A stretch of DNA of 64,000 nucleotides from Mobula hypostoma (lineage: Eukaryota), in NCBI RefSeq assembly GCF_963921235.1, contig NC_086097.1, positions 78,060,001 through 78,124,000 on the forward strand, given 5' to 3'. A program made the position numbers and the translations under genes. The notes beneath the pieces were generated by a model. That model saw nothing but the letters and a program-made list of their open reading frames with translations. It had not been told where the DNA came from and did no database searches. Shown in pieces: positions 2,871-52,052 of the stretch. Each line of letters begins with the position of its first letter. Positions within the stretch are counted from its first letter, which is position 1.

Positions 2871-2997
2871 ATCAAGGGTCTCAGCCTGAAACGTCGACTG
2901 TATCTCTTCCTAGAGATGCTGCCTGGCCTGCTACGTTCACCAGCAACTTTGATGTGTGTTGCTTGAATTTCCAGCATCTGCAGAATTCCTGTTGTTT
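2871..2997 (+). repeat. Penelope-tail-derived short repeat, hammerhead core 5'-truncated
   Basis: AAGGGTCTCAGCCTGAAACGTCGACTG...CAGAATTCCT, near-identical to the copies at 8666 and 23883 but lacking CTGACG. Confidence 0.85.
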
Positions 2998-4204
2998 AAC
3001 TTATTTTTATTGTTTGTTATCGTTTTGCAAAACTGGACAGTTCAAATGAGAATTCTTAGCTCTCTGTAAGGCCAGCAGCCCTTTGACATAAGAGACTCCA
3101 TGTGCAACATTGGCCAAATTTCATAGTGTTTTTTGTGCAGAAGGTGTCTTGCGAACAGGTGAAACCAGCAAAACTGAAAAAGCACCTCAAGTCTGTCCAT
3201 CCCAAAAATGCATCTAAAGATGCAAATTTTTTTTTGTATGAAGAAAACTCAATTGGAAGAAGTTGGAACACTTCCGAAACTTGGATTTGCCATTTTGCAA
3301 AAATTTTTTCCGGAAGCATCCTTTAATGTTGCTTACCGGATTGCCGAACAAAAGAAGGCCCACACCTATTGGAGGGACTTTAGTAAAGCCACTTGCACTG
3401 GAAATGGTCGAGCTGGTTTATGGACTGGAACATAATTTTTTTAAATGGAAGCTGTTCCCTTATCAAATAATATGATTCCTTCTAGAATACTTGATATTCC
3501 CTTTCGCAATTCCCATTCAGTATGCAAGTGGATAAAACTACAGACATCTCTCAATGTAGCCAGATCCTTGTTTACATTCGTTGGTTTCAAAGAATTCATT
3601 GGAAATGGTAATAAGTCTTTTTTTGCCTGGAAAGAAAATCTTCATACACTTTGCATAAATGGAGCACCTGCGATGCTTGGTAATGCATTTGGTTTTGCTA
3701 CTTTAGTGTAAAAGGAAGCTCCTCATGTTGTTGTCATTCATTGTTTTTTACACAGACATGGAGTAACAACAAAGGCTCTTTCATCAACCCCGACTGAAGT
3801 TTTGTCAACAGCCATAAAAGTTATTTAATTTATTCAAAGCAGAACTCTGAATAAAGGACCTCACTGAGAATTAGGTGTAGAATATGAAGTGCTTCTCTAC
3901 CACACAAGAGGATAAGTCTTGAAGCGCTTGTTTGAATGGAGGACAAAAGTTTCACTTTTTTGAAAGAGAAAGAACCTCCACTCTTGGAACAGTTTGAAAC
4001 AAAAGGATTGCATCCATGCATTGGCTTCCCTGCAGGTATTTTTAACCACACGAATGAAATAAACCTTTCAAATCAAGCTCCTGAAGTTACCATTATAGAT
4101 TCTACTGAAAAAATACAAGCCTTCTTGGCGAAACTACCGATATGGAAGTAGACGGTAGAGGCAACATCTTTGCAAACTTACAAATGTTGGAGGAAGTACA
4201 TCTT

Positions 4205-5341
4205 AACGTTAAGGCTACAGTCAGTCTGTGCGGGCAGAGATGTCTCTTGTCCAATATGCTGAGCACTGACGCTCCCCAAGGCAGTGTGCTCAGCCCGCTG
4301 TTGATGCATGACTGTGTCGTAGGATCAAGTACAAACTGTGTCAGGTTTGCGTATGACACAACCATAGTTTGGCCTTACCAAGAATGATGACGAGGCGGAG
4401 TATAGAGAGGAAATGGAGTGGCTGGTGAATTGGTGTGGGAAAAACAACCTAGGCCCAAATGTAGAGAAGACAAATGAAATTATTGTGGACTTCAGGAAGG
4501 TGCAGATGAGCCATCCCCCTCTGCAAATACATGGCTCCTCCATAGAAAGACTTAAGTGCACCAAGTTCCTGGGAGTTCACATCACAGATGACCTCACCTT
4601 GTCCCTTAATATCACCTCCCTTTGAAAAGTTCAAAGTAAAATATATTATCAGAGTACGTACATGTCACCACATACAACCCCGAGATCTTTCTCTATGGGC
4701 ACACGTAACAAATCTGTAGAACAGTAACTATAAAGTAGAAACATCAGGAATTGCAAACTGTAACCAAACTGTGCAAATACAGATATACAAGAAGGCACAG
4801 CAGTGCCTCCACTTCCTAAGAAGGTTGAGGCAAGCGAGACTTCCCCGCCACACCCCTCCACCCATCTTAACTGTGTTTTACAGGAGCACCATTGAGAACA
4901 ACCTGACGTTGCATCCCCATTGGGGACATTTATCAGGAGTGCTGCGTTACCAGGGCCCTTGGTATTATTAAGGATACCACCCATCCATCGTGCATCCTTT
5001 GACTTTTCTACCATCAAGCAGGAAACTATGACGCATAAAGACAAGAATGGTCAGGATAAGAAACAGTTTTATCCCCCAGGTCATTAGGCTTCTGAACTCC
5101 CCGCTGCATCGTATTCTCTTCTGTACCTAACAATATTTAATATTTGTGCACTTTTGTTTGTTTTTTATGTGTAATTCATCTGTAGATTTTATCCTTACCT
5201 TCATAAGTTATTGTGTGTTATGTGTGTTACTGTACTTTACACCCTGGTTTGGAGAAATGTTGTCTCATTTCTATATACATTATATGGTTATATATGTTAT
5301 ATACATGTACATAGTTAAATGACAATAAACTTGACTTGACT
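4205..5341 (+). mobile_element. Rex1/Babar-type LINE, 5'-truncated, nested in Charlie
   Basis: DAPQGSVLSPLL, RFAYDTTIV, KKAQQCLHFLRRLR C-terminal motif; AATAAA plus (CTTGA)n tail; interrupted at ~4623-4790 by another repeat 3' end. Confidence 0.85.
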
Positions 5342-6009
5342 TTGCCAAGATTGAGTTGAGATACAAAATTCTCTGTCAATTTCTTTGAAGAGAGACATCT
5401 GGGAACATCTGGGAACACTTCAGAACTCTTTTGAAAGTTATTTCCATCTTGATGATATTAAAGTTGAACCATGGATCCACAGTCCTTTTCTTTCTGATAT
5501 AAACTGTATCAAAGGTGTTGAAATAGCCAAAGATGAACTCATTGATCTTAGAACACAAAACTTACTTCATTTGGAGTTTAAGTCTAAAAGCCTTGGATAA
5601 TTCTGATGTTCCTTGAGGGAAGCCTATCTTCACCTGGAAAAGTGAGCTATGGAAGCTTTAATTCCATCTGCAACAGCATATCTTTGCGAGTCAGGATTTT
5701 CAACACTTGTAACGTTAAAACAAAAAATCAAAATGGATTGGATGTCTGACATGACGTGTATTGCTTTTGTCAAAGACAACCCCACTTGTTCTTATAATGT
5801 TCCTATTCAAGTGGAGCAACAACAACTTCATACTGATATGTCGTTAGAAAATAAAATTTAATCGTAACTTGCATATATTTTTAATGTATGACTTTGTTAC
5901 TTACTGCATTAATAAAGAAGCCCATATATTACAATATCACAAATTTTGATGACCGTATTTCAATATAATTAGTTTCATTTGTAATCCTATGCATTTTATT
6001 TGATATACT

Positions 6010-6285
6010 TAGAACATAGAAGTTTACAGCACATTACAGGCCCTTCATCCCACCATCTTTGCCATTCATGTAACCTTCTCTATAAACTGGCTAGAATTTC
6101 CTTAGCGCATGGCCCTCTATTTTTCTAAGCTCCATGCACCTATCTAAGAGTCTCTTAAAAGACCCTAATGTATCCTCTTCCACCACCACCGCCAGCAGTG
6201 CATTCCACGCACCCACCATTCTGTGTGAAAAACTTAGCCCTGACGTCGCCTCGGTACCTACTTCCAAGCACCTTAAAACAATGTT
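6010..6285 (-). mobile_element. CR1 LINE 3' end
   Basis: Homologous to 6765-7025 and to the 3' end of the CR1 at 47507-48930. Confidence 0.85.
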
Positions 6286-6764
6286 ATCTTATGTACAGTT
6301 AATAATCAAACCACCTCAATAGGTATTTCGAATGAATCACTGCCCCAACTCACATTCACTTGAGTGTGATCCCACAGAACTGTAAACTTACCATGGACGT
6401 CATTAACTAAGGACTGTTCAGTAAATGGACCTAAAAACGCTATTGTTCCCTCCGTGATACTTGACATGAGCTTTCACCTTTGTAAATGTATTCTTTTACC
6501 CTCAGATATATCCCACATTTGGGTGTCTTCTCACCATCCTGTACAGGTGAGCAATCATCTACAAAACATAAATATTATTTATTTTGTTTGTCTTGGTTCT
6601 CAGATATTGCTTTCTGATCTTGTTCTACCACCCCTCATTATTATTTGATACAAATGGTGCCTTGGGATCATTTGTTATCGTATCCTGATGCCCATGTGGT
6701 TGTCCAGTACATTAAAAATATCTGCAAGGAAGGTAGAAACATTAATACCCTTTTACATAGAGCA

Positions 6765-7950
6765 TAGACCATAGAAATCTACAGCACATTACAGGCCCTT
6801 TGACCCACAATGTTGTGCCGACCATGTAATTTACTCTAGAAACTGCCTAGAATTGCTCAACGATGTAGCCTTCTATTTTTCTAAGCTCCATGTACCTGTC
6901 TAAGACCCTATTGTATACGCCTCCACCACCATCACTGGCAGTGCATTCCAATGCACCACTCTGTGCGGAAAACTTGCCCTGACATCTCCTCTATACCTAC
7001 TTACAAGCACCTTAAAACTATGCCCCCTCCTGTTAGCCATTTCAGCCCTGGGGCAAAGCCTCTGGCTATCCACACGATCAATGCCTATCACTATCTTATA
7101 CACCTCTATCAGGTCACCACTCACCCTCTGTTGCTCCCAGGAGAAAAGGCCAAGTTCACTCAATCTAGTCTCATAAGGTATGCCCTCCAATCCAGGCAAC
7201 ATCCTTGTAAATCTCCTCTGCACTCTCTCTGTAGTATCCACATCTTTCCTGTAGAGAGGTGACCAGGACTGAGCACAGTACTCCAAATGGGGTCTTACCA
7301 AGGTATTCTATAGCTGTAACGTTACCTCACGGCTCGTGAACTCATTCTCATGGTTGATGAATCTCAACACACCATATGCCTTCTTAACAACACTGTCAAC
7401 CTGCATAGCAGCTTTGAGTGTCCTATGGACATAGACCCTAAGATCTCTCAGATCCTCCTCACTGCCAGGAGTCTTACCATTAATATTATATTCTGTCTTC
7501 AAACTTGACCTACCAAAATGAACCACTTCACACTTATCTGGGATGAAGTCAATCTGCCACTTCCCAGCCCGGTTCTGCATCCTATAGATGTCCTGGTGTA
7601 ACCTCTGACAACCCTCCAGACTATCCACAACACCCCCAACCTTTGTGTCATCAGCAAACTTACTAACCCACCCTTCTACTTCTTCATCCAGGTCATTTAT
7701 AACCATCACAAAGAGGAGGGGTCCCAGAACTGATCCCTGCGGAACACCACTGGTCACCGACCTCCATGCAGAAAACAAACAATCTACAACCACCCTTTGC
7801 CTTCTGTGGGCAAGCCAGCTCTGGATCCACAAAGCAAGGTCTCCTTGGATCCCATGCCTCCTTACTTTCTGAAGGAGCCTGGCATGGGGAACCTTATCAA
7901 ATGCCTTACTGAAGTCCACATACACTACATCCACTGCTCTACCTTCATCA
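6765..7950 (-). mobile_element. CR1 LINE, 5'-truncated
   Basis: ORFs 7308-7934 (DFSKAFDKVPH, SGVPQGSVLGP, SKFADDTK) and 6900-7301 (VRPHLEYCAQSWSP). Confidence 0.95.
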
Positions 7951-8023
7951 ATTATTCTGTGAAGGGGTCCATAGGCTTTACTGGTCTGCCAAAGAGGTCC
8001 ATGGCATTAAAAAAAAGCCCTTG

Positions 8024-8255
8024 ATTTAAGGTGAGAGGGAGGAGTGAATCTGAGGAGTTAATTTTTCACACAAAGTAGTTGGTATCTGGAATAAACTACC
8101 AAGGACGTGGAGGTGGCAGGAGCAATAACAACATTTAAGAGGCATTTGGGCAGGTACATGAAGAAGTAAAGCACAAAGGCATATGGAATTGAAGCAAGTA
8201 ATTAGATACGATTGTCAGCAGAGGCACAGTTGGCTGTAGCTCTGTGTTTCTATGG
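8024..8255 (+). mobile_element. Old CR1 3' fragment (host of the Charlie insertion)
   Basis: Continues the CR1 sequence of 2821-2861 across the Charlie TSD; resembles other CR1 3' ends in the window. Confidence 0.65.
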
Positions 8256-8665
8256 AGTAAAACTTTCTGACTCAATTACCTTCCTTAAGCAATAGAGCCT
8301 CTTTTCCAGATGTACTTTGGATCAGAACAATAGTCCCTGATATTACCTCTTGTGCCCATTCTGCACCTGGAAAATACACTTCAAAATCTAATTTATCATC
8401 TAAAATATGTGCAACCTTGGACTTGTTTTAGCAATCACACTTTAATTCAAAGAACCATATCAATCAAGGTTTTGGACTACAAGCTTGTTATTTGCCACCA
8501 TCTTTTACTTCACAGACATCTGTCAGTGAATGGCAATTAAACTACAATGGTCTTTATCTTGGTTTATTTGTCATCAATTAGTCTTTACAGTCTTCTTGGA
8601 AAACCTTGGAGGAACATTTTAAACATAGGTACAGTATAATATGTCAAGATAATGTAATGTAACAT

Positions 8666-8794
8666 CCTGACGAAGGGTCTCAGCCTGAAACGTCAACTGT
8701 ACCTCTTCCTACAGATGCTGCCTGGCCTGTTGCTTTCACCAGCAACTTTGATGTGTGTTGCTTGAATTTCCAGCATCTGCAGAATTCCTCATGT
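8666..8794 (+). ncRNA. Short insertion with minimal type I hammerhead ribozyme core
   Basis: CTGACGA-AGGGTCTCAGCCT-GAAAC-GTC; 16-bp TSD with 2 mismatches (8650-8665, 8795-8810); stem I 5' strand absent. Confidence 0.8.
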
Positions 8795-8814
8795 TAATGT
8801 AATGTTTCATGCTC

Positions 8815-10162
8815 TGTCATGGTCCAGTCCATGAAGTCCCCATTCCGGTTCACTGTCCGGTCCGTGGACTCAGGACTCTGGGTCTTCCAGCTGTCCCTTG
8901 TTTGACTAAATCAAAGGCACCTGATTCCCATCCTCGGGCTTGCACCCTTGAGATTGAGTGTGGACAGCTGGTTTGTCTTGTCAGTCCCCCTTGGAGTAAC
9001 CTGCTGATGGAAGGCTAGTGAAACCATTCGTGATCTCTAGGCCTGGTTGGAGGACCACTGCTTCATGGAGCCTTGTTGCCACTCGTTGGAGTGGTCTTTG
9101 TGGTATGGATTTGGCTGTTTCCCGGGCCAGCTGAGTGGCTGCCAGCCACTCTGAGCTAGGTAGGGAGCTGGCTGCTTCCGTAGCAAGCTGAGGTTGCTGG
9201 CCAAACTGAGACTTGGAGCTTCCCGGAGCAAAGGTGGAACTCTCTGTCATTCTTTGGTGTTTGTCTCTTCTTGTCCTTGCCTCCGTGGGGTAAGTCAGGC
9301 TATTCTGCTGTTGCCCCGTGGGGGGTCATGTCTTGTCTTGTCCTCACCTCCGTGGGGTAAGTCAGGCCATCTTGCTGTTGCCCTGTTGGGGGGGGGGTGT
9401 TGGTGGTCATGTCTTGTCTTGTCTTTGCCTCTGTTGGGTAAGTCTGGCCATCCTGCCGTTACCCAACAGGTGGACCTGTCCCACCTTGGTGTGGAGATGA
9501 AGTTGAGTCCCGGCTTGTCATAGGATAAGTCCTGGCTCTATGTCTATGTTCTGTCCTGTCTCATGTTAGTGTTGTGTTAAAGATGAGTTCTGGCATGTCG
9601 AAGGATAAGTCCCAGCTCTATGTTGATGTTCAGTTCCCAGTCTGTCTCTCAGCTCCAGCCTCCGAGTTATCAGACTTCGCATTTCAAGACGACAATCCCG
9701 CAGCCAAGCTCCAAGAACCCTAGCCTCGATGATCCCGCAGCCAGGCTCCAAGAACCCAAGCCTCGAGGATCCCGCAGCCAAGCTCAAGACCCAAGAACCC
9801 AAGCCTCGAGGACCCCGCAGCCAAGCTCAAGACCCAAGAACCCAGGCCTCGAGGATCCCAAGCCAGGCTCAAGACCCAAGACAACAGCCTCAAGCCATGT
9901 CATGTCCTTGCCTGGTTCTGGGGTCTGAGCCCAAGGCAAGACCCAGGCTCTGGGTCCTTGTCCAGTCTCGGGCTCAGAGTCCAAGCCTTGTCTCCTAGTC
10001 TATGTTTCCTAGTCCTGGTCCTGCCTTCCCTAGCCCAACTCTGCGTTCTTGTCCCTGCTCCTTGCCTGAATTCTGTCATGTCCCTACTCTGGTCAAGTCC
10101 TGTCCTTGTACTTCAGTGTCTGTGTCTGCATTTGGGTCCGTTCCCAGCACCCCATTGAGACA
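8815..10162 (+). mobile_element. Solo LTR-like element with internal tandem arrays
   Basis: TGTCAT...GAGACA termini; both ends homologous to the reverse complement of 36738-37685; TSD not clean. Confidence 0.7.
9697..9880 (+). repeat. Tandem minisatellite (~37-44 bp unit, ~5 copies)
   Basis: Repeated CCCGCAGCCA(A/G)GCTC...CAAGAACCC..GCCTCGA(G/T)GA. Confidence 0.9.
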
Positions 10163-23088: not shown

Positions 23089-23882
23089 CATGCTAATTTT
23101 TGTATTGAGTCTGTGTACTATCAGCAGCACTGCCATTTGTTCTGAACTGTAGAGAACTGCACACACTTGAAAATACTGCCTTTTGCACTCAGTGGGTGTA
23201 TTGTCAGTAGGCACTTTTCCTATCGTGAGTTTGTGCATTTTCTTCACTGATAAGAGTTTACTCTCAGAGGTATGTCTTTCATGCTGAGAGTATAGGCAAC
23301 ATCAAAGATACTGGTTTTCAGCTTCTGATATTTACTCAAGATGTTGTTTGCTCTCTCAAAGGGGTAGAATTATCCCGTTGCACTATAGAGTAGTGAAGGC
23401 TGGTTTTCCCTGTGGCCAAACACATATATAAATCCATCAATAGCATTAGTAAATTATAATAGATATCGAACTGTTATGGTTTGTGTAGTTTGTTATTTTG
23501 TTACTTTGCATTGTTTGTCATTTTCTATACTCAACAATATTTCATTGTGTTGTGGCAAAATTTCATGTCCTGATTTTCTTTTCAACTTCTTCATTAGCGT
23601 TCAAAAGCAACCCTCTTGCTCAAAGTGTAAGGAAATACCAGTTCTATTTGGATCCATGGAGCAAAGCAGCAGGGTGGAGATGTTTGAGCCAATCTTACCC
23701 ATACTGACTGTTCAGCAGAGTTTTCCAATTTGTTTAGCTCCCAGGTTCTGTCCCCACAGCCCTATAAAAGATTTCTACATGAGTACATTTCCAATTACCC
23801 TTTAAAAGTAACCAATAAACTTTGTTCCTTTATGTTCTTAGCCAGAGGATTCCTGCATTCAACAAATATTAGCAAATAATAT

Positions 23883-23977
23883 CCTGACGAAGGGTCTCGG
23901 CCTGAAACGTCGACTGCGCCTCTTCCTATAGATGCTGCTTGGCCTGCTGCGTTCACCAGCAACTTTGATGTATGTTG
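23883..23977 (+). ncRNA. 95-bp insertion with minimal type I hammerhead ribozyme core
   Basis: CTGACGA (23884-90), stem II AGG...CCT, GAAA-C-G-TC then GACTG; 14-bp TSD with 1 mismatch (23869-82, 23978-91). Confidence 0.85.
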
Positions 23978-24714
23978 TTAGCAAATATTATGACCTTTTT
24001 CTCTTCTTTGTTCCATTAGGTTACTGCTATGTTGACTCAGGCCTAGGGGGCCGGCATCGGGCCTCCATTAGGTTCCTCCCCTGAAACTCAGAACCTCTGG
24101 TTTCTGCCTTGATTGCTGCTATGAATAGCTTCTCCATCTTTACAGACTTGTCCAGTCTGAGGATCAGTGCATGTCTTCTGGAGAATGAGGCAGACTTCAT
24201 GGTGAAAGAAAGAGGACAATAGGGAGCCATGAACAGAACACAGGAGGAACCAGATAGAAAGTGACCCGGGGTGGGGTGGGGGGGGGAGAGAGAGAGAGAG
24301 AGAGATGTCAAATATGAGCCAATTATTAAGCTCATATGCCTCCTCTGCTTTATCATTTTGTATATAATTTCAGTCATCCCTCAACCTCTCCTATTGACAT
24401 ATTTCCATTATTTTATTTCTGCTGTGTGTTTACAACATCTCCTTTTTGATGGTCTCTCAATTTTTTAACTGTTGTTTTGCCTCCTGATGTTTGAATTAAA
24501 TCTCATTTATTACTTACATTTACAATCAGCTTTCTTTCAAAGATCATTACTATATTATTCCATACCCTTTTCTATATTTACTTTACTTATCTTATTTTTT
24601 ATTTATTTCTCCAAATAATCTCTGGGTAATATCTGCTGACTTGCCCATTCTATTGCTCAGACTGATAGACTGTGAGGCCACTTTTACATGAGAGGATTGG
24701 CATCCTTAGTGACT

Positions 24715-25253: not shown

Positions 25254-26825
25254 CAGAGGTCCCCAACCACCGGGCCACAAAACATGTGCTACCGGGCTGC
25301 GAGGAAACAATATTATTTGGCGGTATGAAGCGATATGAGTCAGCTGCACCTTTCCCCATTCCCTGTCACGTCCACTGTTGAACTTGAACGTACACGATGT
25401 CATCAATCTGTATGAGTAAAAAACAAACGTCGTTTGAGAGTTTCTTTGAAAGAGGTTGAAGATGACATAAAAGGCCTAATGATGATGATAACGCAGAGAC
25501 AGCTGAGGCAGAGACTGCAAAAATAAAGAAAACTTCCTTTAACAGAAAATACGACGAGTCGTACATAAAATATGGCTTTATTGCAACCGGTGACTCGCAT
25601 GCTCCAAGCCCCCTGTGTGTGATATGTGGAGACAAGCTGTCTAATGAGGCAATGAAGCCCTCAAAACTGCTTCAGCACCTTGAGTCCGAGCGCCCTGCAC
25701 TTAAAGACAAACTCGTTGAGTATTTCGAGAGGAAAAAACGTGAGCAAGCGGGACAGAAGCAAATGCTGAGAGTAACGACCTCCACAGATGTTGCTGCTCT
25801 GAGAGCGTTGTACTTACTGACTAGCTGTGTGACATCTTCAACCTGCTCAATGAACTCAGTTTGTCACTTCAGGGGAGAATGACAACTGTCAAGTTGGCAG
25901 ATAAAGTGTCTGCTTTCAAAGCGAAACTGTAACTGTGGGGATGGTGAGTGGACAGGGGCATATTTGACTTGTTCCCAACATTAACTGGGATTTTGGGAGA
26001 GACTGAGGCTGCACCGTCTTTCTCACAGCTGGTGCGCGATCACCTAACTTCACTGTCGGCAGAATTTGAGCGTTACTTCCCAACCGCAAATGACCGAAGA
26101 CGTGCAAAGGAATGGGTCCGTGACCCATTTATGAATGTCCCCGGTGAATCATCCATGTCAGCGTGGGAAGAAGATCAACTCCTCAAGCTTGCAAATGACG
26201 GTGGGCTGAAAAGTATGCTTGACATAACATCTCTGCCGGCATTCTGGATCAAAGTCAAGGCTGAATATCCTGAGATAGCCATGAAAGCACTGAAAACGTT
26301 GCTTCCATTTCCAACATCATATCTCTGCGAAGCAGAGTTTTCTGCAATGAATGCAACGAAAACTAAATTGCGGAATAGACTGGACATAAAGAACCCCCTT
26401 CAAGTATCGCTGTCTCCCATCACCCCTTGATGGGACCGTCTTGTTGCAGGGAAACAAGCCCAGGGCTCCCACTGATTCACTGATGATTGCAATGATTTTA
26501 TATGTTCAAACAAGGAAAATATGCGCTGTGTGTTTAATATCCAAACGTTACTTAAAATGTTATGATGCTATTGACTTATAAGTGACATTATTGGCTTATC
26601 ACTATATTCATGGGAGGAAAATATGTGCTGTCTGTTTAATATTAAATTTTTTAGATAAACCCTTTTAGAAATGAAATTGAGTGTATTATTAGCCACTTAC
26701 AAGTGACTTATAGTTTCAACTATATTCCAGGTCGCAATTAACAACCCACCTCCCGGTTGGCCGGTCTGCAAGAATATTATCAATATTAAACCGGTCTGCG
26801 GTGCAGAAAAGGTTGGGGACCCCTG
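25254..26825 (+). mobile_element. hAT-Charlie transposon, internally deleted
   Basis: 15-bp TIRs CAG(A/G)GGTCCCCAACC; 8-bp TSD CACTATGA (25246-53, 26826-33); BED-like N-terminus (CVICGDKLSNEAMKPSKLLQHL) and C-terminal dimerisation region (FPTSYLCEAEFS). Confidence 0.95.
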
Positions 26826-27469: not shown

Positions 27470-30400
27470 GAAACACAGAAACATAGAAAATAGGTGCAGG
27501 AGTAGGCCATTCGGCCCTTCAAGCCTGCACCACCATTTATTATGATCATGGCTGATCATCCAACTCAGAACCACACCCCAGCCTTCCCTCCATACCCCCT
27601 GACCCCCGTAGCCACAAGGGCCATATCTAACTCCCTCTTAAATACAGCCAATGAACTGGCCTCAACTGCTTCCTGTAGCAGAGAATTCCACAGATTCACC
27701 ACTCCCTGTGTGAAGAAGTTTTTCCTAATCTCGGTCCTAAAAGGCATCCCCTTTATCCTCAAACTGTGACCCCTTGTTCTGGACTTCCCCAACATCGGGA
27801 ACAATCTTCCTGCATCTAGCCTGTCCAATCCCTTTAAGATTTTATACGTTTCAATCAGATACCCCCTCAATCTTCTAAATTCCAATGAGTACAAGCCCAG
27901 TTCATCCAGTCTTTCTTCATATGAAAGTCCTGCCATCCCAGGAATCAATCTGGTGAACATTCTTTGCACTCCCTCTATGACAAGGATGTCTTTCCTCAGA
28001 TTAGGGGACCAAAACTGCACACAATACTCCAGGTGTGGTCTCACCAAGGCCTTGTACAACTGCAGTAGTACCTCCCTGCTCCTGTACTCAAATCCTCTCG
28101 CTATAAATGCCAGCATACCATTCGCCTTTTTCACCGCCTGCTGTACCTGCATGCCCACTTTCAATGACTGGTGTATAATGACACCTAGGTCTCGTTGCAC
28201 CTCCCCTTTTCCTAATCGGTCACGATTCAGATAATAATCTGTTTTCCTGTTTTTGCCACCAAAGTGGATAACTTCACATTTATCCACATTAAATTGCATC
28301 TGCCATGAATTTGCCCACTCACCCAACCTATCCAAGTCACCCTGCATCCTCTTAGCATCCTCCTCACAGCTAACACTGCCACCCAGCTTTGTGTCATCCG
28401 CAAACTTGGAGATGCTGCATTTAATTCCCTCATCCAAGTCATTAATATATATTGTAAACAACTGGGGTCCCAGCACTGAGCCTTGCGGTACCCCACTAGT
28501 CACTGCCTGCCATTCCGTTTATTCCCACTCTTTGCTTCCTGTCTGCTAACCAATTCTCCATCCACATCAATACCTTACCCCCAATACCGTGTGCTTTAAG
28601 TTTGCACACTAATCTGTGTGGGACCTTGTCAAAAGCCTTCTGAAAATCCAAATATACCACATCCACTGGTTCTCCCCTATCCACTCTACTAGTTACATCC
28701 TCAAAAAATTCTATGAGATTCGTCAGACATGATTTTCCTTTCACAAATCCATGCTGATGATTTCACCGCTTTCCAAATGTGCTGTTATCACATCTTTGAT
28801 AACTGACTCCAGCAGTTTCCCCACCACCGACGTTAGGCTAACCAGTCTATAATTCTCCGGTTTCTCTCTCCCTCCTTTTTTAAAAAGTGGGGTTACATTA
28901 GCCACCCTCCAATCCTCAGGAACTAGTCCAGAATCTAACGAGTTTTGAAAAATTATCACTAATGCATCCACTATTTCTTGGGCTACTTCATTAAGCACTC
29001 TAGGATGCAGACCATCTGGCCCTGGAGATTTATCTGCCTTCAATCCCTTCAATTTACCTAACACCACTTCCCTACTAACATGTATTTCGCTCAGTTCCTT
29101 CATCTCACTGGACCCTCTGTCCCTTACTATTTCTGGAAGATTATTTATGTCCTCCTTAGTGAAGACAGAACCAAAGTAATTATTCAATTGGTCTTCCATG
29201 TCCTTGCTCCCCATAATCAATTCACCTGATTCTGTCTGTAGGGGACCTACATTTGTCTTTACCAGTCTTTTCCTTTTTACATATCTATAAAAGCTTTTAC
29301 AGTCAGTTTTTATGTTCCCTGCCAGTTTTCTCTCATAATCTTTTTTCCCCTTCCTAATTAAGCCCTTTGTCCTCCTCTGCTGAACTCTGAATTTCTCCCA
29401 GTCCTCAGGTGAGCCACTTTTTCTGGCTAATTTGTATGCTTCTTCTTTGGAATTGATACTATCCCTAATTTCTCTTGTCAGCCACGGGTGCACTATCTTC
29501 CTTGATTTATTCTTTTGCCAAACTGGGATGAACAATTGTTGTAGTTCATCCATGCAATCTTTAAATGCTTGCCATTGCATATCCACCGTCAATCCTTTAA
29601 GTGTCATTTGCCAGTCTATCTTAGCTAATTCACGTCTCATACCTTCAAAGTTACCCCTCTTTAAGTTCAGAACTTTTGTTTCTGAATTAACTATGTCACT
29701 CTCCATCTTAATGAAGAATTCCACCATATTATGGTCACTCTTGCCCAAGGGGCCTCTCACGACAAGATTGCTAATTAACCCTTCCTCATTGCTCAAAACG
29801 CAGTCCAGAATAGCCTGCTCTCTAGTTGGTTCCTCGACATGTTGGTTCAAAAATCCATCCCGCATACATTCCAAGAAATCCTCTTCCTCAGCACCTTTAC
29901 CAATTTGGTTCACCCAATCTACATGTAGATTGAAGTCACCCATTATAACTGCTGTTCCTTTATTGCACACATTTCTAATTTCCTGTTTAATACCATTTCC
30001 GACCTCACTACTACTGTTAGGTGGCCTGTACACAACTCCCACCAGCGTCTTCTGCCCCTTAGTGTTACGCAGCTCTACCCATATTGATTCCACATCTTCC
30101 CGGCTTATGTCCTTCCTTTCTATTGCGTTAATCTCTTCTTTAACCAGCAACGCCACCCCACCTCCCCTTCCTTCATGTCTATCCCTCCTGAATATTAAGT
30201 ATCCCTGAACGTTGAGTTCCCATCCTTGGTCACCCTGGAGCCATGTCTCTGTGATCCCAACTATATCATAATCATTAATAACAATCTGCACTTTCAATTT
30301 ATCCACCTTATTACGAATGCTCCTTGCATTGACACACAAAGCCTTCAGGCGCTCTTTTACAACTCTCTTAGCCCTTATACAATTATGTTGAAAAGTGGCC

Positions 30401-36737: not shown

Positions 36738-37685
36738 TGTCATATGGAGGTGCTGGGAGCAGACCCAAATGCAAGACACAGACACTGAAGTACTAGGAAC
36801 AGGACTTGACTAGAGACCTGGGACAAGAACACAGACTTGGCTAGGCAAGCAGGACCAGAACAAGGAACTAGGAACTTGGAACCCGGACAAGGACTCTGAG
36901 CCAGAGACTGGACAGGGACCTGGAACCTGGGTCTTGACTCGGGCTCGGACCCTGGATACAGGAGAGGATAAAACGTGGACAAATCCCCCTCCTTGGGAAC
37001 AGGACTTGGGACTGGGGCTCTACACAGAGTCAGGACCCCTCCTAGGGAGCAGGACATAGGGCTGGGACTTGTACACAGAACATTGAGAGACAGATGTCCA
37101 CTCAAGGTAACAGCAAACGGCCGGACCTACCCAGCAGAGCCGAGGGCACAAAGAGACGGTTCTCAATACAAGGTAGCGGCAAACGGCTGGACCTACCTAG
37201 CGAAGGCGTGGACACAGAGACAGTTCCCAACTCAAAGGAAGTGGCAAATGTCCGGACCTACCTAGTGAAGGCGTGGACACAGAGACAGTTCCCAATTCAA
37301 GGTAGTAGCAAACAGCCGGACCTACCTACCGAAGGTGAGGACACAAAGAGACAGTTCCAAACAATGAAAGACAGTTCCTTATCTAGACACAGCAAGGCCC
37401 CGGTCTTGCCCTGGTGGTTGAACCTGACGGCGTTACAGGCGAAGGTAGCAGGCGAGGCTTCAGGCGAAGGTAGCAGGCAAGGCTTCAGGAGGAAGGGGAA
37501 GGGGAGGGAACAGTCCAGCAACTGAAGCTGAACCTAGGAGCTGTTTATGTAGCCAGCCCAAAATGAGAATCATGTGCCTCAATTAAGGCACACAACAGAA
37601 CAAGGGAAAAGCAGAAAACCTGGAATAAGGATCAATAGACCGGACCGTGAACCGGAATGTGGACTTCACAGACCGGACCATGACA
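36738..37685 (-). mobile_element. Solo LTR (948 bp)
   Basis: TGTCAT...ATGACA termini; 5-bp TSD CTATC (36733-37, 37686-90); four internal ~60-70 bp tandem units. Confidence 0.85.
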
Positions 37686-38472: not shown

Positions 38473-38805
38473 CGAGGGGTGACTGATAAGTTCGTGGCCT
38501 AAGCTAGAAGGAGATGAGTTATACAGCTCTCGTTACATGCACGTGCAGTTCAACTCTTTGAGTGATTATGCAGAAAGTTTGAAGTTAATAACTCATCTCC
38601 TTCTACCTTAGGCCACAAACTTATCCATCACCCCTGCTGTGGACCACTTTCTGGACAGGTCCAAGATGCCGACTTCTACAAGGAAGGGATCTGCCTGCTC
38701 CATGACCGCTGGACTAAGTGTGTAAATGTAGGAAAAATAAATGTGCCAGGTTTTCTACAATTGACTCCTTATACCTTAGGCTGCAAACTTATCAATCACC
38801 CCTTG
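38473..38805. mobile_element. Mariner-type MITE
   Basis: TA|CGAGGGGTGACTGATAAGTTCGTGGCCTAAG is inverted to CTTAGGCTGCAAACTTATCAATCACCCCTTG; third TIR copy at ~38593-38635. Confidence 0.8.
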
Positions 38806-40430: not shown

Positions 40431-41470
40431 ATCACATGCAAATTGCTGGAGTAACTCAGCAGGCCAGGCAACATCTATGGAAAAGAGTAAACAGTTGATG
40501 TTTTGGGTTGAGACCTTCATCAAGACTGGTAAAAAATATAAGAAGTTAGAGCAAGAAGGTAGGGGGCAGAGGTGGAAGAAGTACAAGATGATAGGTGATA
40601 GGTGAAACTGGGAGAAGGGGAAGGGTGAAGTAAAGATTTAGGAAGTTGATTGGTGAAAGAGATAAAGGGCTGGAGAGGGGGAATCTGATAGGAAAGGGTA
40701 GAAGACCATGGAAGAAAAGGATTGGTGGGGAGCACCAGAGCAAGGTGATGGGGAGGTAAGGACATAAGGTGAGAGAGGGAAATGGGAAAGGGGGAACAGT
40801 GAGGGGTGGGGGGCAATTACCGGACGTTTGAGAAGTCGATGTTCATGCCATCAGGTTGGAGGCTACCCAGATGGAATATAAGGTATTGCTCCTCCAACCT
40901 GAGTGTGGTCTCATCATGGCAGCAGAAGAGGCCATGGACTGACATGTCAGAATGAGAAGTAGAATTGAAATGGGTGGGCACTCGGAGAACCCACTTTTCT
41001 GGCAGATGGAGCATAGGTGCTTGGCGAAGTCGTCTCTCAACCTACTTCAGGCCTCACCGATATACAGGAGGCCACTCAGGGAGCACCGGATATAGCAGAT
41101 GACCCCACCAGACACCAGAGGCGAAGTGTCGCCTCACCTGGATGGACTGTTTGGGGTCCTGAATGGTAGTGAGGGAGGAGGTGTAGGAGTAGGTATGGTA
41201 CTTGTTCTGTTTGCAAGGATAAGTGCCAGGAGGGTGATCAATTGGGAGGGACGAATGCACGAGGGAGTAGCGTAGGGAGCAATCCCCGTGGACAGCAGAA
41301 AGTTGGGGGGAGGGAAAGATGTGTTTGGTGGTGGGATCCCGTTGGAGGTGGCTGATGTTTTGGAGAATTAAGTGCTGGACGCGAAGACTAGTGGGGTGGT
41401 AGGTGAGGACAAAAATATCCTATCCCTTTTGAGGTATCAGTGGGGAGGGACGAATGGACATAGGAGTCAT
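40430..41470 (-). mobile_element. Penelope-like element 3' part (GIY-YIG endonuclease, 3' UTR, decayed hammerhead)
   Basis: GTYPCKQNK...QVRRHF and HFNSTSHS...LRLEEQYLIFHLGSLQPDGMNIDFSN; minus strand reads CAGTC-TTGATGA-AGGTCTCAACCC-AAAAC-ATC-AACTG at ~40528-40492. Confidence 0.9.
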
Positions 41471-41514: not shown

Positions 41515-41922
41515 TCTCAGGTTGGAGGAGCAACATCTTATATTCTGTATGGGTAGCCTCCATCCTGATGACATGAACACCGATTTCTCAAACCTGGTAA
41601 TTGCCTTCCTGCTGTGTTCACCAGCAACTTTGATGTGTGTTAATTGCCTCACACCTTTCACCATTCCCCCATTCCCATTTCCCTCTGACACCTTATCTCC
41701 TTACATGCCCATCACCTCCCTCTGCTGCTCCTCCCCCTTCCCTTTTTCCATGAGCTTCTACCCTCTCCGATCAGATTCCTCCTTCTCTGGCCCTTTATCT
41801 CTTCCACCAATCAATTCCCAGATCTTTACTTCACCCCTCCCGCCTCCCAGTTTCACCTATCACCTACCACTTTATCCTTCTTCCTCCTCTCCCTCCCATT
41901 CTTGCTCTAAGTTCTCATCCTC
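41515..41922 (+). mobile_element. Inverted partial Penelope copy (pseudo-LTR-like)
   Basis: LRLEEQHLIFCMGSLHPDDMNTDFSN plus pyrimidine-rich UTR, inverted relative to ~40540-40905. Confidence 0.85.
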
Positions 41923-42800: not shown

Positions 42801-42809
42801 TATTTTTTA

Positions 42810-45800
42810 CTTTTTCTCAGGTCGAGCTGGTAAAACCTGAGGTATGGGCATAGACAAACACATTCATTTCTCAATTGCTAGAATTGTTTAATGCTATTGT
42901 GTAGTGATTTTGGAAAGATACCAGTTGTAGATATTACTATTGGGACGATATATACCCTGTTTATGTTCCAAAGTCTTTCAATTCACTCTTTTAATTCAGC
43001 ATATTTCTGGTGTTTTTCACATTGATTTCTATATGTTATGTGCGTTTCAAAAGGCTATATTTATTAAGTAAGTTGTTCTTGCTTGGTAATCCTGTAATAT
43101 CATATCAGGATAATTATTATTTCTATTTATTTTTTCTTAGCTTAAACTGGTAAAACTATTATTATTCTTTTCATTTTTTTCTCCAGTCATGCTAGTAAAC
43201 CCTAAGGTATGGGCAAAGCCAAGCACACTCATTTCTCAATTTCTAGGAACTTCTGAATTATTCAAGTGGTGTTTAGTATTAGCTGTCTGGATATTTTGCA
43301 TGAGTATTGGTGTGTAGACCTAATTGTTTAATGCTATTGTGTAGTGACTTTGGGATGATACCAGTTGTAGTTATTACTATTGGAACACCCTGCTCATGTT
43401 CCATAGTCTTTCTATTTCCTCTTTTAATTCAGCATATGTCTGGTGATTTTCATATATTGATTTCTGTTTGTTGCTTGTGCTTTGAATGGCTGTATCTATT
43501 AAGTAAGCTGTTCTTGCTTGTTTATCCTGTAATATTATATCCGAACAGTTATGATGGATTGTTCTATCTGTTATTATAGATCAGTCGTAATATAATTTGT
43601 AAGGCTCTAAAAATGGATCAGGCTTCAATTTATAGTAAAGTATGGTGTCCGTTGTGAGTTGTATTTTAAAGCAAGATTTTTGTGATTGTGCCTGTAGAAG
43701 TAATCAGATTCAGTTTAACTGCTGCAGGATCCTGTAATATGTTGAACTGATTCTGGTTTCTCTTGGCATTTTCTGTATTTATCATCAATTTATCTTCAAT
43801 TTGTTGGTCTTTTTTGTGTATGTGTTAACCACTTGGTCCTATATTGCCAAAAGGAACCCCTCTGTTTCTGGTAAGAGGTCTCCATCTCTAAGCCAAGCAT
43901 TTGACAATTCCTTGTCAACATCTAGTCTGCTCAGATAGTGGGGATGACTTCCACAGAGGGTCATGCTCTTCATTTGGTTAAATTCTTTCTTCCGCAGAGA
44001 TAATTTCTTCATTTTTCTGGGTTGTGCTTTCACTTAAATTTATTGATGTGTACTTCTTACCAGAATTGCATATAGTTGTATGGGGTGCTGAATACTGTTT
44101 CCGTTGATGAGAAAATATCCTTAGAAATTTTGTATAACTGTTGTGTAATTTTTTTATGTTTGTTTTTTCACTTCTTCCTTCTGTGCTTGGTAGTGTTAAT
44201 CCAAGTGTGCTTGAGTGTACATAGTGTTTTCTAAAATTTGTCACTTCAGTTCTTATTTTTCTTTGTAAATTTTCCAGATCAGTTTCAGACCAATGTATTA
44301 TGCCAGAAGACTATCTTAATGTGGGTATAGTGAAAGTGTTTATTGCTTTTTTTTACTATTGAGCTTTGTTTGGCAGAATTTCTTGAGCCTTGATGTAAAT
44401 TCTGTTGAAAGTTTTCCCTTTATTGCACTAAGACCTATTTTCTTTGCTTGTTGGGATCCCAGATACTTATATGTTTCATCTTCATCCATCAGTTGTATTG
44501 TATCCTGCTGCTCTAATATAGCACCTTTCTTTATGTTTAATGTTCCGCACTTATCTGATTTTTCTCAGCTCAAGCTGGTAAAACCTAAGGTACAGACATA
44601 GCCAAGTATGCCCATTTGTCAATTGCTAGGAACTTTCAGAATATCCTAGTGGTGTTTAGTATTGTGGCTTTCTGAAGATTTACGCATATGTTATTTCCCT
44701 AATTGTTTAATGCTGTTGTGTAGTGCCGTTAGGATGATACCAGCTGTAAATATTATTATCAGGACAGTGTATATGTTGATCATGTTCCAAAGTCTCTCAA
44801 TTTCCTCTTTTAATTCAGCATATTTCTGGTGTTTTTCACTTATGGAATTCTGTATGTTATGTGTGTTTAGACTGGCTATATCTATCAAGTATGTTGTTCT
44901 TGTATTATTATATCTGAATGGTTATTATGGATTGTCCTATCTGTAATAACTGATTGGTCATAATATAAGTTGTGATATTCTGAGTCTAAAACTGGATCAG
45001 GCTTGTATTTAGAGTAAGGTGTGATTTCATTTATGAGTTTGTATTTTAGAGCAAGATTTTAATGAATGATGTTTGCCACTTGATTGTGCCTGTGTAAGTA
45101 TTCAGAATGTGTTAAACTGTTACAGGTTCCTGAAATGTGCTGGATTGTTTCTGGTATTTCTCAGCATTTTTTACATTTATCATCTTGAATTTGTTGGTCT
45201 TTTATTATGCATTTTAGATTTTTTTTATGTTAACCATCTGGTCCTGTATTGCCACAAGGAACCTTTTTTGTTTCTGGGAAGAGGTCTCCAACTCTGAGCT
45301 AGGCATTCGATACTTCCTTGTTGCCATCTAGTTTGCTCAGATCATAGGGATTGAATTGAATTAAATTGACTTTATTTCTTACATCCTTCACATATATGAG
45401 GAGCTACGTTACGTCTCCGTCTAAATGTGCAATGTGCAATCGTAGTAACTTATAATAAATAGAACAGTCAATGTAACATAGAAATACACTCAAATCAGCG
45501 TGTGTTAATCAGTCCGTTGGCCTGGTGGAAGAAGCTGTCCTGGAGCCTGTTGGTCCTGGCTTTTATGCTGCGGTATCATTTCCCAGATGGTAGCAGCTGG
45601 AAGAGTTTGTGGTTGGGGTGACTCAGGTCCCCAGTGATCCTTCAATCCCTTTTTACACACGACTTTGTAAGTGTCCTGAATCATGGGAAGTTCACAACTA
45701 CAGATGTGCTGGGCTGTCCACACCACTCTCTGCAGAGCCCAGTGATTAAGGGAGGTACAGTTCCCATACCAGGCAGTGATGCAGCCAGTCAGGATGCTCT

Positions 45801-47340
45801 CAGTTGTGCCCCTGTAGAAAATTCTTAGGATTTGTGGGCCCATACCAAACTCCATCAACCGTCTGAAGTGAAAGAGGCCTTGTTGTGCCTTTTCCACCAC
45901 AGCACTGGTGTGTACAGACCATGTGAGGTGCTCGGTGATGTGGATGCCAAGGAACTTAAAGCTGTTTACCCTCTCAACCCCAGATCCATTGATGTCAATA
46001 GGGGTTAACCTGTCTCCATTCCTCCTGTTATCCACAACCAGCTCCTTTGTTTTTGTGACATTGAAGGAGAGTCTTCCATGGAGAGTCATACTCTTCCATT
46101 GGTTAACTTTTTCTTTAACAGTGATAATGTCTTCATTTTTTGGGTTGTGGCTTAATTTAAGTTAGTTGTGTATACTTCTTATTGGAATTGCATATGCTTG
46201 TGTGGAGTGCTGATTTCTGTTTTTGTTGATAAAAGCATATCCTTAGAAGTTTTATCTGACTGATGTATAGATGTTTAATGTCTGTTATTCCTCTTCTCCC
46301 TTCTGTCCAGGTACATATTGTTTTCTGAAATTTGTCATTTCATTTCTTATTTTTCTTTGTAAATTTTCCAGATCGGTTTTGGACCAAGATAATATGCCAG
46401 AAGAATACATTAACATAGGTACAGAAAAAGTAGTGTTTATTGCCTTTGTTATAATTTTACTGTTGAACTCTGTTTGGCAGATTTTCTTAAGCCTTGAAGT
46501 AAATTCTGTCAAAAGGTTTTCCTTTATTACACTATAATTTATTTTCTTCCTTGTCGATTTTCCAGGTACTTACAAGTTTCAACTTTGTGCATCAATTCTG
46601 TTGTATCCTGCACCTTTCTTTATGTTTAGTGTACTGCATTTATCCAGTCCAAAGTTCATAGTTATATCTTTGGAAAACAGCTCTGCTATTTAAATTAATT
46701 GTTTGTCCCTGTATCCTATCACAACTGTCTCAAATTCTGTTACTCGGTAGTATACACGCATTATAAATGTGTTTATTTTTAATGACCATTTCATGCCTGA
46801 CTTTCTTCTTTTAGCTGCTTGAGTGGTTGCAGTTATTATTATTATTATTATTATTTCTTTTTTTATTTTTGTATTTGCAGTTTGTTGCCTTTTGCACATA
46901 GATTGTTTTCCCATCCTGTTGGGGGTGATCTTTCATTGATTCAATTGTATTTCTTGCATTTACTGTAAATGCCCACAAGAAAATAAACCTCAGCATTGTG
47001 TATGGTGACATATTTGTACTTTGAACTTCATACTTAGCTTTATTTTATGGGTCTAAAATTGTTATTTTTCTCATAGTTTAACATTTCTTCTGCTTGCTTA
47101 TGACTTTTTATAATCACCTATATGTGTGTAATGGTGGTATATTGTTCTGCGAATTTTCAGTAACCGTAGTGTAGCTGATTCTGTGTTTTTCTTGAAGTTT
47201 CTCTGCAGCCTGTATCACACCACTGAATTCAACTATTTCAAAGGTTACCATTTATCAATGGAATGTCTTGTTATCCGTCTAGTTTGTATAAGACGACCAA
47301 GACTTCTTTGATATTTTTCTTGGCTTTTCTTTGTTTGGCT
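42810..47340 (-). mobile_element. Tandem cluster of degenerate R4/Dong-like (RLE-type) non-LTR retrotransposons
   Basis: LPETEGFLLAI, AINTTFSVPMLMYSSGILSW and IDIAS...EKHQKYAELKEEIERLW (RLE); the same 3' end recurs at ~42816, ~43136, ~43190 and ~44565. Confidence 0.8.
45350..46075 (-). mobile_element. Rex1/Babar LINE 3' part nested in an R4-like copy
   Basis: NVTKTKELVVD, FKFLGIHI, KAQQGLFHFRRL; (TCAAT)n tail. Confidence 0.9.
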
Positions 47341-50497: not shown

Positions 50498-52052
50498 CAA
50501 GTTTCCCCCGCCATCCGAAGGTAGAGCGTTCCTATTAAACGGTTCGTAAGCCGAAATGTCGTAAAGTGAAGAAGCAATTAACGTTTACTTATATGGGAAA
50601 ATTTTGTGAGCGTTCACAGACCCAAAAATAACCTACCAAATCATGCCAAATAACACATAAAACCTAAAATAACAGTAACATATAGTAAAAGCAGGAATGA
50701 TATGATAAATACACAGCCTATATAAAGTAGAAATACTTTTCCACAATCATTACTGAACTGTTCTCCGTAGCGAAAATCTCACGCAAGTGCCTTCGGCAAA
50801 AAATCTCACACAAGCGCTGTTGGCAAGCACACTCTCTCCTGTAACCTTTAAGCTATGAAGCTGCCAAATCATACCAAATAACACGTAAAAATACACTGCC
50901 AATATAAAGTAGAAATAACGCATGTACAGTGTAGTATCACTTACGGGAATCGGGAAGACAGCGCAGAGCACACTGATGATGGTGTGTTAGACTGAGTCGT
51001 TGCAGGTTGTGTGGTACAGTGGTCCCCACCGTCCAGGCCACTGAGCGATACATTGCTGCGAAGAACGCAGGGGTCCAGCGGTAGCCGGGAGGTACACAGC
51101 ACATCTTTAAGAAAAAAGCCGAAACAAACATGCTAATTAATTAGGTGCCACCCGTAATTGTCGGCCCAAATCAGTGCCGATTTCCTTATTGTGTCGTCTC
51201 TGATCTGGGCCAACAATTAGGTGTCGGCGGCACCTAATTAATTAGCATGTTTATTTCGGCTTTTTTCTTAAAGATGTGCTGTGTGCCTCCTGGCTGCCTT
51301 TGCATTCTCTGCGAATCGGTATCTCTCCATGGCCTGGGGGTTGGGGTGGTGGGACACTGGGGTGTCATCTCGTCATCTGTTTCCATTACAGCAGGCAGCT
51401 CATCTTCTTCTATCTCTGCCCGCCTCGATGTCGAAGGTCAAGGTTCGTCGTCTGCTGTGGCTGATGTGGAAGGCTTGCTTGACTGCTGAGCCTCGTGCAT
51501 TTTTCTATCACACAGTTCTTTAATAAGAACTCAAACCATCCTGCAAATATCCCCTAAACTGACGTACCCTTTCAAAATTAAAGTCGTACTTTATCATTAC
51601 TCATTCGGTTTCGATTGTTATCCTTTTTTCTTCCAGTTGCATCAGCTCTTCATCTGTCAGTTCTTGGTGATGGGATGTCAAAACCTCTTCAACATCATGT
51701 TCGTCAGCTTCCACAAGCCAAACTCACGCTGTCCTTACTTCATTCACCACGATCAAAACGCTTAATTATATCTAGTTTTACCATAAGTGTAACACCCTTA
51801 CGAGCTCTTTCAGGCTTTTCCGATACTATAGAACTCATCTTGCAAACGGCTGCTTGCAGGCACATGTTAAAGCAATGCTGTTCCGAATCTGGGGGAGAGC
51901 AGCCTCTCAGGGCGCGCTGCCTTTTATCGCGTGCTGAGTTTTCTTTCGTAACAGTGAAAACACCTTCTGAAAGCGAAAACAGAGTACTAATGTAGGTCTT
52001 TCGTAACAGTGAGGTTTCATAAAGCGAACATTCAAAAAGCGGGGGACACCTG
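50498..52052 (-). mobile_element. Tigger/pogo DNA transposon, internally deleted
   Basis: TA TSD; TIRs CAAGTTTCCCCCGC / GCGGGGGACACCTG; CENP-B-like N-terminus RARKGVTLMVKLDIIKRFDRGE. Confidence 0.9.

Follow-up and report, generated by a model that had tools for sequence, protein, structure and literature searches.

Minimal hammerheads (min-HHRs) are known from the pLTRs of metazoan Penelope-like elements (PLEs), and the accessible text of PMC4209133 states that most of them are found singly, 'probably related to truncated PLEs'. Biochemical work is available for PAc, the Poseidon element of Anolis: according to the sections of PMC11167929 used here, the Penelope-like protein nicks and extends both target strands in vitro, reverse transcription starts at two internal sites, which define the tail, and hammerhead cleavage is unneeded for insertion in vitro; the PAc hammerhead itself requires the element protein to cleave. 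Other related systems are the retrozymes, which, in the available portions of PMC7229834 and bioRxiv 10.64898/2026.07.22.740005, are described as tandem repeats of 150-450 bp that carry a complete hammerhead per unit and are expressed as circles.

The 95 bases analysed here, within a window that is the whole 64-kb stretch of DNA under study, belong to a kind of sequence that is already known: they are a copy of an EN+ Penelope-like element's pLTR that is truncated and in which the minimal hammerhead has been clipped. It is highly probable that they represent the 3' end of a ~3.5-kb Penelope-like retrotransposon present in tens of thousands of near-identical copies, and that the element's endonuclease and reverse transcriptase likely inserted them as a short, dead copy; the hammerhead of this copy is without the stem I strand and is predicted to be non-cutting. 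The insert itself is ordinary and likely inert; the family, with its tens of thousands of young copies, represents a fossil record of the poorly understood Penelope mechanism.

The insert, its parent element and the hammerhead motif

Positions in the family are numbered from window base 23883, the C before CUGACGA, which is taken as +1; the preceding base is -1 and the predicted cut lies between +29 and +30. The features are collected in Table 1.

Table 1. Penelope-related features in the window and parts of the hammerhead motif of the insert
Feature	Positions	Strand	Remarks
Left target-site duplication (TSD)	23869..23882	+	last T, 23882, also matches element position -1
Insert, pLTR positions +1..+95 of a Penelope-like element	23883..23977	+	ends at 3' site 1, no tail
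Right TSD	23978..23991	+	sequence
Hammerhead core C3-U4-G5-A6-N7-G8-A9	23884..23890	+	sequence; conventional hammerhead numbering
Stem II, best register GGGU/GCCU, CUCG loop	23892..23903	+	unpaired A at 23891 precedes
GAAA, palindromic ACGU (23907-23910, dimer-type stem III) and C17	23904..23911	+	predicted cut after 23911; sequence and dimer model of PMC4209133 (accessible part)
Stem I 3' strand GACUG	23912..23916	+	partner UAGUC missing save last two bases
Sister stub, +1 to about +130, with tail	8666..8794	+	11-bp exact TSD at 8650-8660 / 8795-8805
Sister stub starting inside core (no CUGA), with tail	2871..2999	+	no TSD visible by eye
34-bp sister stub, +61..+94, no hammerhead	41608..41641	+	9-bp TSD at 41598-41606 / 41641-41649
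Older 5'-truncated Penelope-like copy, GIY-YIG remnant	40434..41410	-	about 78% to young family

The insert is a genuine TSD-flanked insertion. As the first-pass annotation had described, a minimal hammerhead core of Penelope type is present at 23883 between 14-bp repeats; these are identical at 13 of 14 bases, a match whose chance is ~2e-7 per offset pair and 6e-5 over 289 offsets. The insert is 94/95 identical to the 3' end of a long copy (L164) and 90/95 identical to each pLTR of a full-length one (L163), and in a host-gene check the three reading frames flanking it gave no Pfam match at E<=1. The full-length element is organised as pLTR, ORF (RT, GIY-YIG) and pLTR, with the two pLTRs lying 3,497 nt apart; its upstream pLTR has 314 bases, the tail runs directly into the ORF, and a 13-bp TSD surrounds the whole. 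Going upstream in the long copies, one passes a pyrimidine-rich stretch and then reaches the ORF, in which RT and GIY-YIG motifs and the linker CxxxxCxxC are seen; the zinc-finger linker CX2-5CxxC between RT and EN, a feature of the Neptune/Nematis clade, is present in the translations as CKRNKCYTC. Pfam analysis of the ORF matched RVT_1 (E=1.1e-6) and GIY-YIG (E=0.0024 and 0.014), all below the curated cut-offs, and C-terminal pieces of the ORF were without match at E<=0.001. The hammerhead lies about 95 and 131 nt upstream of the two 3' end sites.

The earlier proposal of a high-copy family was borne out by a genome-wide count which, like the other family counts, was made by sequence-pattern matching: in the genome of 3.48 Gb the core 34-mer is matched exactly 37,833 times, and 0 times when reversed as a control, a 29-base anchor 3' of the core has 65,600 copies and a degenerate pattern for +30..+63 has 86,983 matches. 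Nine matches at ~90% identity, and 17 that are older or shorter, were found in 200 kb of windows not chosen by motif.

Positions 23883-23916 read C-CTGACGA-AGGGTCTCGGCCT-GAAA-CG-TC-GACTG, and C17 falls on 23911, in agreement with the cleavage predicted after this base. The conserved core, helix II and the palindromic 15.2-16.2 are all present; stem I consists of two pairs only (UC with GA), short of the 4-5 bp helix I expected of minimal hammerheads, and the loss of most of the stem I strand had been correctly recognised. In the young family stem I is UAGUC/GACUG, and its 5 bp, with the whole strand at -5..-1, are kept in 28,864 of the 37,833 exact sister cores (76%).

Stem II had been drawn as AGG/CCU, a register that did not hold: GGGU/GCCY, which closes a CUCG loop and leaves one A unpaired, fits the family better. 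Among 147 motifs, a sample biased by the picking of loci by pattern and by a regular expression that fixed some columns, 127 have U and 20 have C at position 21, and either base pairs with G10 (144/147 paired); the GGGU/GCCY register is preferred because the C form pairs with G10 but would mismatch A9. This register agrees with the conserved G10.1-C11.1 pair and the extra base of the min-HHRs, as given in the accessible part of PMC4209133. At family position +21 (window 23903) the young subfamily has U, not C, at 11.1, so that the conserved G10.1-C11.1 pair becomes G-U; the change may have arisen at a CpG and become fixed in the master copy, and activity could be altered by it.

Confirmation by the Rfam hammerhead models, envisaged earlier, did not come: a scan of the 64-kb window gave no hammerhead family match at E<=1, and the insert strand folded no better than its shuffles (z 0.46 and 0.34), so that the case for a hammerhead is made by the conserved letters together with what has been published on minimal hammerheads. 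Modelled hammerhead dimers had energies of -12.9 (intact pair), -7.5 (solo with intact) and -2.1 kcal/mol (two solos), whereas the best alternative folds of the same pairings reached -32.7, -28.5 and -25.3 kcal/mol; since the dimers are less favoured, even an intact motif would need help, which agrees with the low or protein-assisted hammerhead activity reported in the accessible parts of PMC4209133 and PMC11167929. Lacking most of stem I, the insert hammerhead is predicted to be inactive. Its completion in trans, which had been suggested, is topologically possible, and in the two-strand model a solo RNA could at most serve as the cut strand for an intact partner, but the modelled fold is not favoured.

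Four solo pieces had been counted in the window; those at 8666 and 23883 have the core, whereas that at 2871 starts inside it and that at 41608-41641 is wholly downstream of the hammerhead position in the element. The 8666 stub shows CpG changes in loop II and stem I. Between its left TSD and its first base, four bases (8661-8664) match the reverse complement of the site-1 end and are possibly a minute partner arm; a clearer minute partner arm, of 11 bases, is seen at another locus (L092). The Penelope copy at 40.5 kb had been taken to display the source layout, with CAGUC supplying stem I: CAGTC does precede the decayed hammerhead (near 40500-40527) of this older copy, but the young family has UAGUC. 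The inverted second arm of the older copy lies at 41516-41896.

Other repeats were observed around these pieces. Near the insert lie a decayed hAT-like transposase (25466-26427, + strand, Pfam E=0.025) and a LINE RT fragment (27568-28518, - strand, RVT_1 E=2e-12), which we take to be CR1-like. Two short MITE-like elements, at 51080-51298 and 38475-38635, have terminal inverted repeats that are long, with arms of 73 and 48 nt, and the Rfam microRNA matches to both are below the gathering score. Tandem units of 65 bp (37086-37363), 37-43 bp (9262-9876) and 67-81 bp (42802-46548) occur alongside a block of 1.4-2.1 kb duplications with 76-84% identity.

Copy lengths and the relation to retrozymes

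Ends were mapped in the first 86 of 100 listed 3'-anchor copies, from the first 3.65 Mb of one contig, by a script that misplaced some ends (e.g. L057, L090, L093). The 5' ends extend from -1890 to +61 as a continuum of copy lengths, with 32 copies at or beyond -100, 20 at -99..-8, 20 at -7..+9 and 14 further in; the 3' ends fall on two sites, with 44 copies at +91..+107 and 42 at +124..+135. The two 3' end sites match the known Penelope 'tail', an optional 30-40 bp. Copies clipped like the insert, with T at -1 and not G at -2, number 1,389 genome-wide, and the 30 inspected comprised 15 inversion junctions, 8 single-arm ends and 7 longer copies with a substitution or indel. A TSD is present in 5 of the 8 single-arm copies, the insert among them; the flanks are unrelated and either 3' end is used.

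The solo pieces had been interpreted as a retrozyme-like, non-autonomous family, a ~95-bp unit that would copy itself via tandem or circular RNA cut by dimeric hammerheads. The true TSD, the very high copy number and the dimer-type core intact in the family are in line with such a model, as is the proposal, in the accessible part of bioRxiv 10.64898/2026.07.22.740005, that retrozymes derive from pLTRs. Tandem cores at a period of 92-122 do occur, some with 3-6 intact units, yet they amount to 23 genome-wide against 37,833 exact cores, and their periods and junctions differ. The unit length is not fixed, no circular permutation was found among the copies inspected, the insert is nearly identical (94/95) to the end of a coding copy, and a dimer of two solo hammerheads is modelled at -2.1 kcal/mol against -25.3 kcal/mol for the best alternative. 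A purine at +29, before the cut site, was found in 1,029 of 86,983 copies, and 13 of 30 inspected were true ends, which gives a corrected share of ~1%; cleaved RNA as the template was rejected, since such copies would start at +30, yet ~1% do. Thus, the variable ends, the 23 tandems and the ~1% of ends at the cut site indicate that a monomer of fixed size is lacking, that tandems are very rare and that cleavage has left no mark. The locus has no tandem with two complete hammerheads and no defined monomer at the cleavage site, and by these criteria it is not a retrozyme; the model is largely refuted at the DNA level and is given a very small probability. The idea was partly right in spirit, the 5' ends of the short copies being uneven and peaking at the front edge of the hammerhead.

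When 20 tandem loci were fetched, 17 proved to be short arrays of 2-6 units with periods of 40-121, two pairs being the same array. In several of them (L217, L221, L222, L227, L231, L219/L220, L223/L224) most units keep stem I and the core, and the 40-bp units are little more than a hammerhead. Since a few short tandem arrays with intact hammerheads exist, retrozyme-like seeds do arise; the rare arrays are possibly seeds of retrozymes, or local slippage. Sequencing contigs, from runs not on record as RNA, had no pile-up of ends, a result from which neither the starts nor the strand nor the level of any transcript can be read.

The stem I edge and the inverted insertions

The loss of cores is 24% across -1..-5 versus 11% across -6..-10; therefore, plain random truncation does not describe the short copies. 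Exact-core copies without T at -4 number 2,799, and 95 of 100 inspected were true ends (56 inverted, 39 single); a further 975 are without T at -5, with 29 of 30 inspected being true ends and ~745 of this class expected from a chance T before an end at -3. The losses at -1 and -3 combined come to ~3,980, a figure obtained by subtraction and roughly scaled for the length of the patterns. It is estimated that ~3,700 copies end at -3, corresponding to ~10% of 37,833, with a shoulder downstream and a drop upstream, where the loss per base at -6..-10 is ~600, substitutions included. The start of about a tenth of the core-intact copies at -3 suggests an RNA start or a copying barrier.

The inverted insertions add a strict rule on the 3' side. 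Divergent arm pairs were found at 73 places (loci L011-L212), 63 of them with a TSD around the whole and 62 classifiable, and in all of these 62 TSD-flanked insertions one arm ends at site 1 and the other at site 2, which would have a probability of 2e-19 if the arms picked sites independently and equally. The count leaves out 10 of the 73 pairs, which are without a TSD of at least 8 bp, and one TSD-flanked pair with an unclassifiable end; among these 11 excluded pairs, 5 also combine site 1 and site 2, and 3 are same-site pairs without TSD that join neighbouring insertions. The arms of the inverted insertions tend toward equal length. At two loci, L034 and L086 (G000:C1:170461 and 2960832), ~350 bases of upstream flank are common at 98.6% and the 3' ends differ; either a duplication or a transduction could be responsible.

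Taken together with the in vitro work in the accessible part of PMC11167929, the TSDs suggest that the enzyme would nick both target strands 10-17 bp apart and that cDNA would be primed internally, at one or other of the two sites, on RNA that is still uncut. The inversions, with one site per arm, would correspond to a single staggered cut that was primed twice. In many copies the copying has gone as far as -3, the outer edge of stem I, or has stopped a few bases before it, where the RNA may begin or the enzyme may stall; the insert would be a site-1 arm that ended at this edge, minus 2-3 bases on joining, with no recognisable partner arm. This two-priming model would draw on the genomic pattern and on in vitro work in a different clade.

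Within the preferred reading, in which the insert is the end of a coding element inserted by its own enzymes, the edge at -3 may be explained in two ways. According to one of them, which is possible although its probability is placed somewhat under even, the A at -3 would be the first base of the element RNA, and run-off products of ~98 or ~134 nt would result when site 1 or 2 of the 5' copy of the pLTR is primed. This A is the first base of four Watson-Crick stem I pairs, and it is here that the estimated ends, ~10% of the exact cores, exceed by far the loss per base further upstream; in addition, the letters at -5..+2 fit YYANWYY, which we take to be the initiator pattern. The cap-G signature that appeared in the first 13 single-arm copies (7 G) is gone in the full set: an extra cap G is absent, with G in 10 of 39 single-arm -3 copies and an expected share of 0.26 (p=0.60). 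The partner arm passes -4 in 13 of the 56 inverted -3 copies (12 to -6..-15, one far upstream), which counts against an RNA start because one RNA starting at -3 cannot give such arms, and 0 of 4 distinct copies with the tail joined to the ORF begin there (they begin at +42, +22, -56 and -179). Penelope transcription in Drosophila virilis starts inside the pLTR, as reported in the accessible part of PMC2377424, but that start lies upstream of an intron ending at helix I (PMC4209133, PMC2377424, accessible parts).

The absence of a cap G, the arms past -4 and the ORF-joined copies are explained by a stall or joining hot spot, a prospect that we rate as not far from even. The reverse transcriptase would stop where a folded or protein-bound hammerhead, or a factor on the upstream AG-ending pyrimidine tract, ends, and microhomologies of A, AG or AGT would fix the junction. 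In favour of this, the peak lies just where stem I has its outer end, the partner arms cross the edge in the 13 of 56 cases just mentioned, 8 of 22 single-arm copies with a TSD have it extending over the first 1-3 bases of the element, and a stretch made up of a branch-point-like motif, a pyrimidine tract and CAG runs up to -6; the need of the PAc hammerhead for the element protein to cleave, as stated in the available sections of PMC11167929, implies binding. However, a reverse transcriptase moving 3' to 5' should stall on entering stem I (+34), where there is no peak and 1 of 86 ends lies at +27..+33, and the hammerhead fold is not favoured in the folding models.

The tract at about -30..-6 of the family (e.g. 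L083:4900-4927) consists of a branch-point-like motif, a pyrimidine tract and CAG just before stem I, which, by the splice consensus, might be read as a splice site. An AG tract before stem I recalls the D. virilis Penelope intron that ends at helix I (PMC4209133, accessible part). Near this motif no strong splice donor was seen and no spliced copy was found; the joining of spliced host or element exons at AG sites found no support, no common upstream sequence being present in the single-arm copies inspected.

A more far-reaching version of the mechanism, which we regard as less likely than not, has the RNA start with the base that opens stem I and has the uncut RNA primed twice by a dimeric RT/endonuclease, once per start site and per strand of one staggered cut; the 95-135 bp 'solo hammerheads' would then be run-off, strong-stop-like 5' leader products. 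If this were true, thousands of solo hammerheads would map a Penelope transposition intermediate to the base. The site pairing, the lack of cut-site ends and the sharp stem I edge give exact, testable predictions on priming, stopping and joining in PLEs, and the same features bear on whether the hammerhead serves to cut or acts as a signal through its structure or through binding. A literature search, with most subscription papers and Repbase outside its scope, retrieved no report of a 5'-end pile-up at the hammerhead edge and none of twin priming in Penelope elements.

Comparison with described systems

The animal non-LTR retrozymes (Cervera and De la Pena 2020, PMC7229834; Li et al., bioRxiv 10.64898/2026.07.22.740005), as far as their accessible descriptions go, resemble the copies found here in being non-coding, in the type I hammerhead, in the larger TSDs and in the pLTR-related sequence. 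Unlike the retrozymes of the available part of PMC7229834, the locus holds one clipped copy on its own, and tandems are very rare in its family.

Closer parallels are found with PAc (Frangieh et al. 2024, PMC11167929), where the sections drawn on describe, as here, two 3' end sites ~36 nt apart downstream of the hammerhead and no sign of cut RNA as template. The likely ORF start differs, being downstream of the tail (about +167) in the present family and inside stem II in PAc according to the same sections. PAc belongs to a different clade and has been characterised biochemically, whereas the present family is known from genome sequence.

The EN+ PLEs of the Neptune/Nematis type (Craig et al., bioRxiv 10.1101/2021.04.23.441226; Arkhipova et al. 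2013, PMC3846280) share with this family, in the accessible parts of both papers, partial tandem pLTRs with an inverted 5'-truncated partner, a 30-40 bp tail that is usually at one end only, TSDs of ~8-17 bp and the CxxxxCxxC linker before the GIY-YIG domain. The sharp pile-up at the stem I edge and the strict rule of one site per arm were not found in the parts of these Neptune/Nematis descriptions that could be consulted.

Finally, the min-HHRs from the pLTRs of metazoan PLEs (Cervera and De la Pena 2014, PMC4209133) have, in the accessible part of that paper, the same core without a real helix III and with palindromic 15.2-16.2, and, like the present family, an extra base between 9 and 10.1 and a helix I of 4-5 bp; they too are mostly single truncated copies, with opposite-strand pairs 100-700 bp apart. 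Helix II has 4 bp here and 7-8 bp in Schistosoma, as given in the same text. The 37,833 exact cores counted here exceed the 4,000-9,000 motifs reported there for coelacanth and Xenopus, figures obtained by a different counting method. Two further traits set this family and this copy apart from the min-HHRs as described in that part of PMC4209133: the young family has G-U at 10.1-11.1, and the copy at 23883 is without most of helix I.
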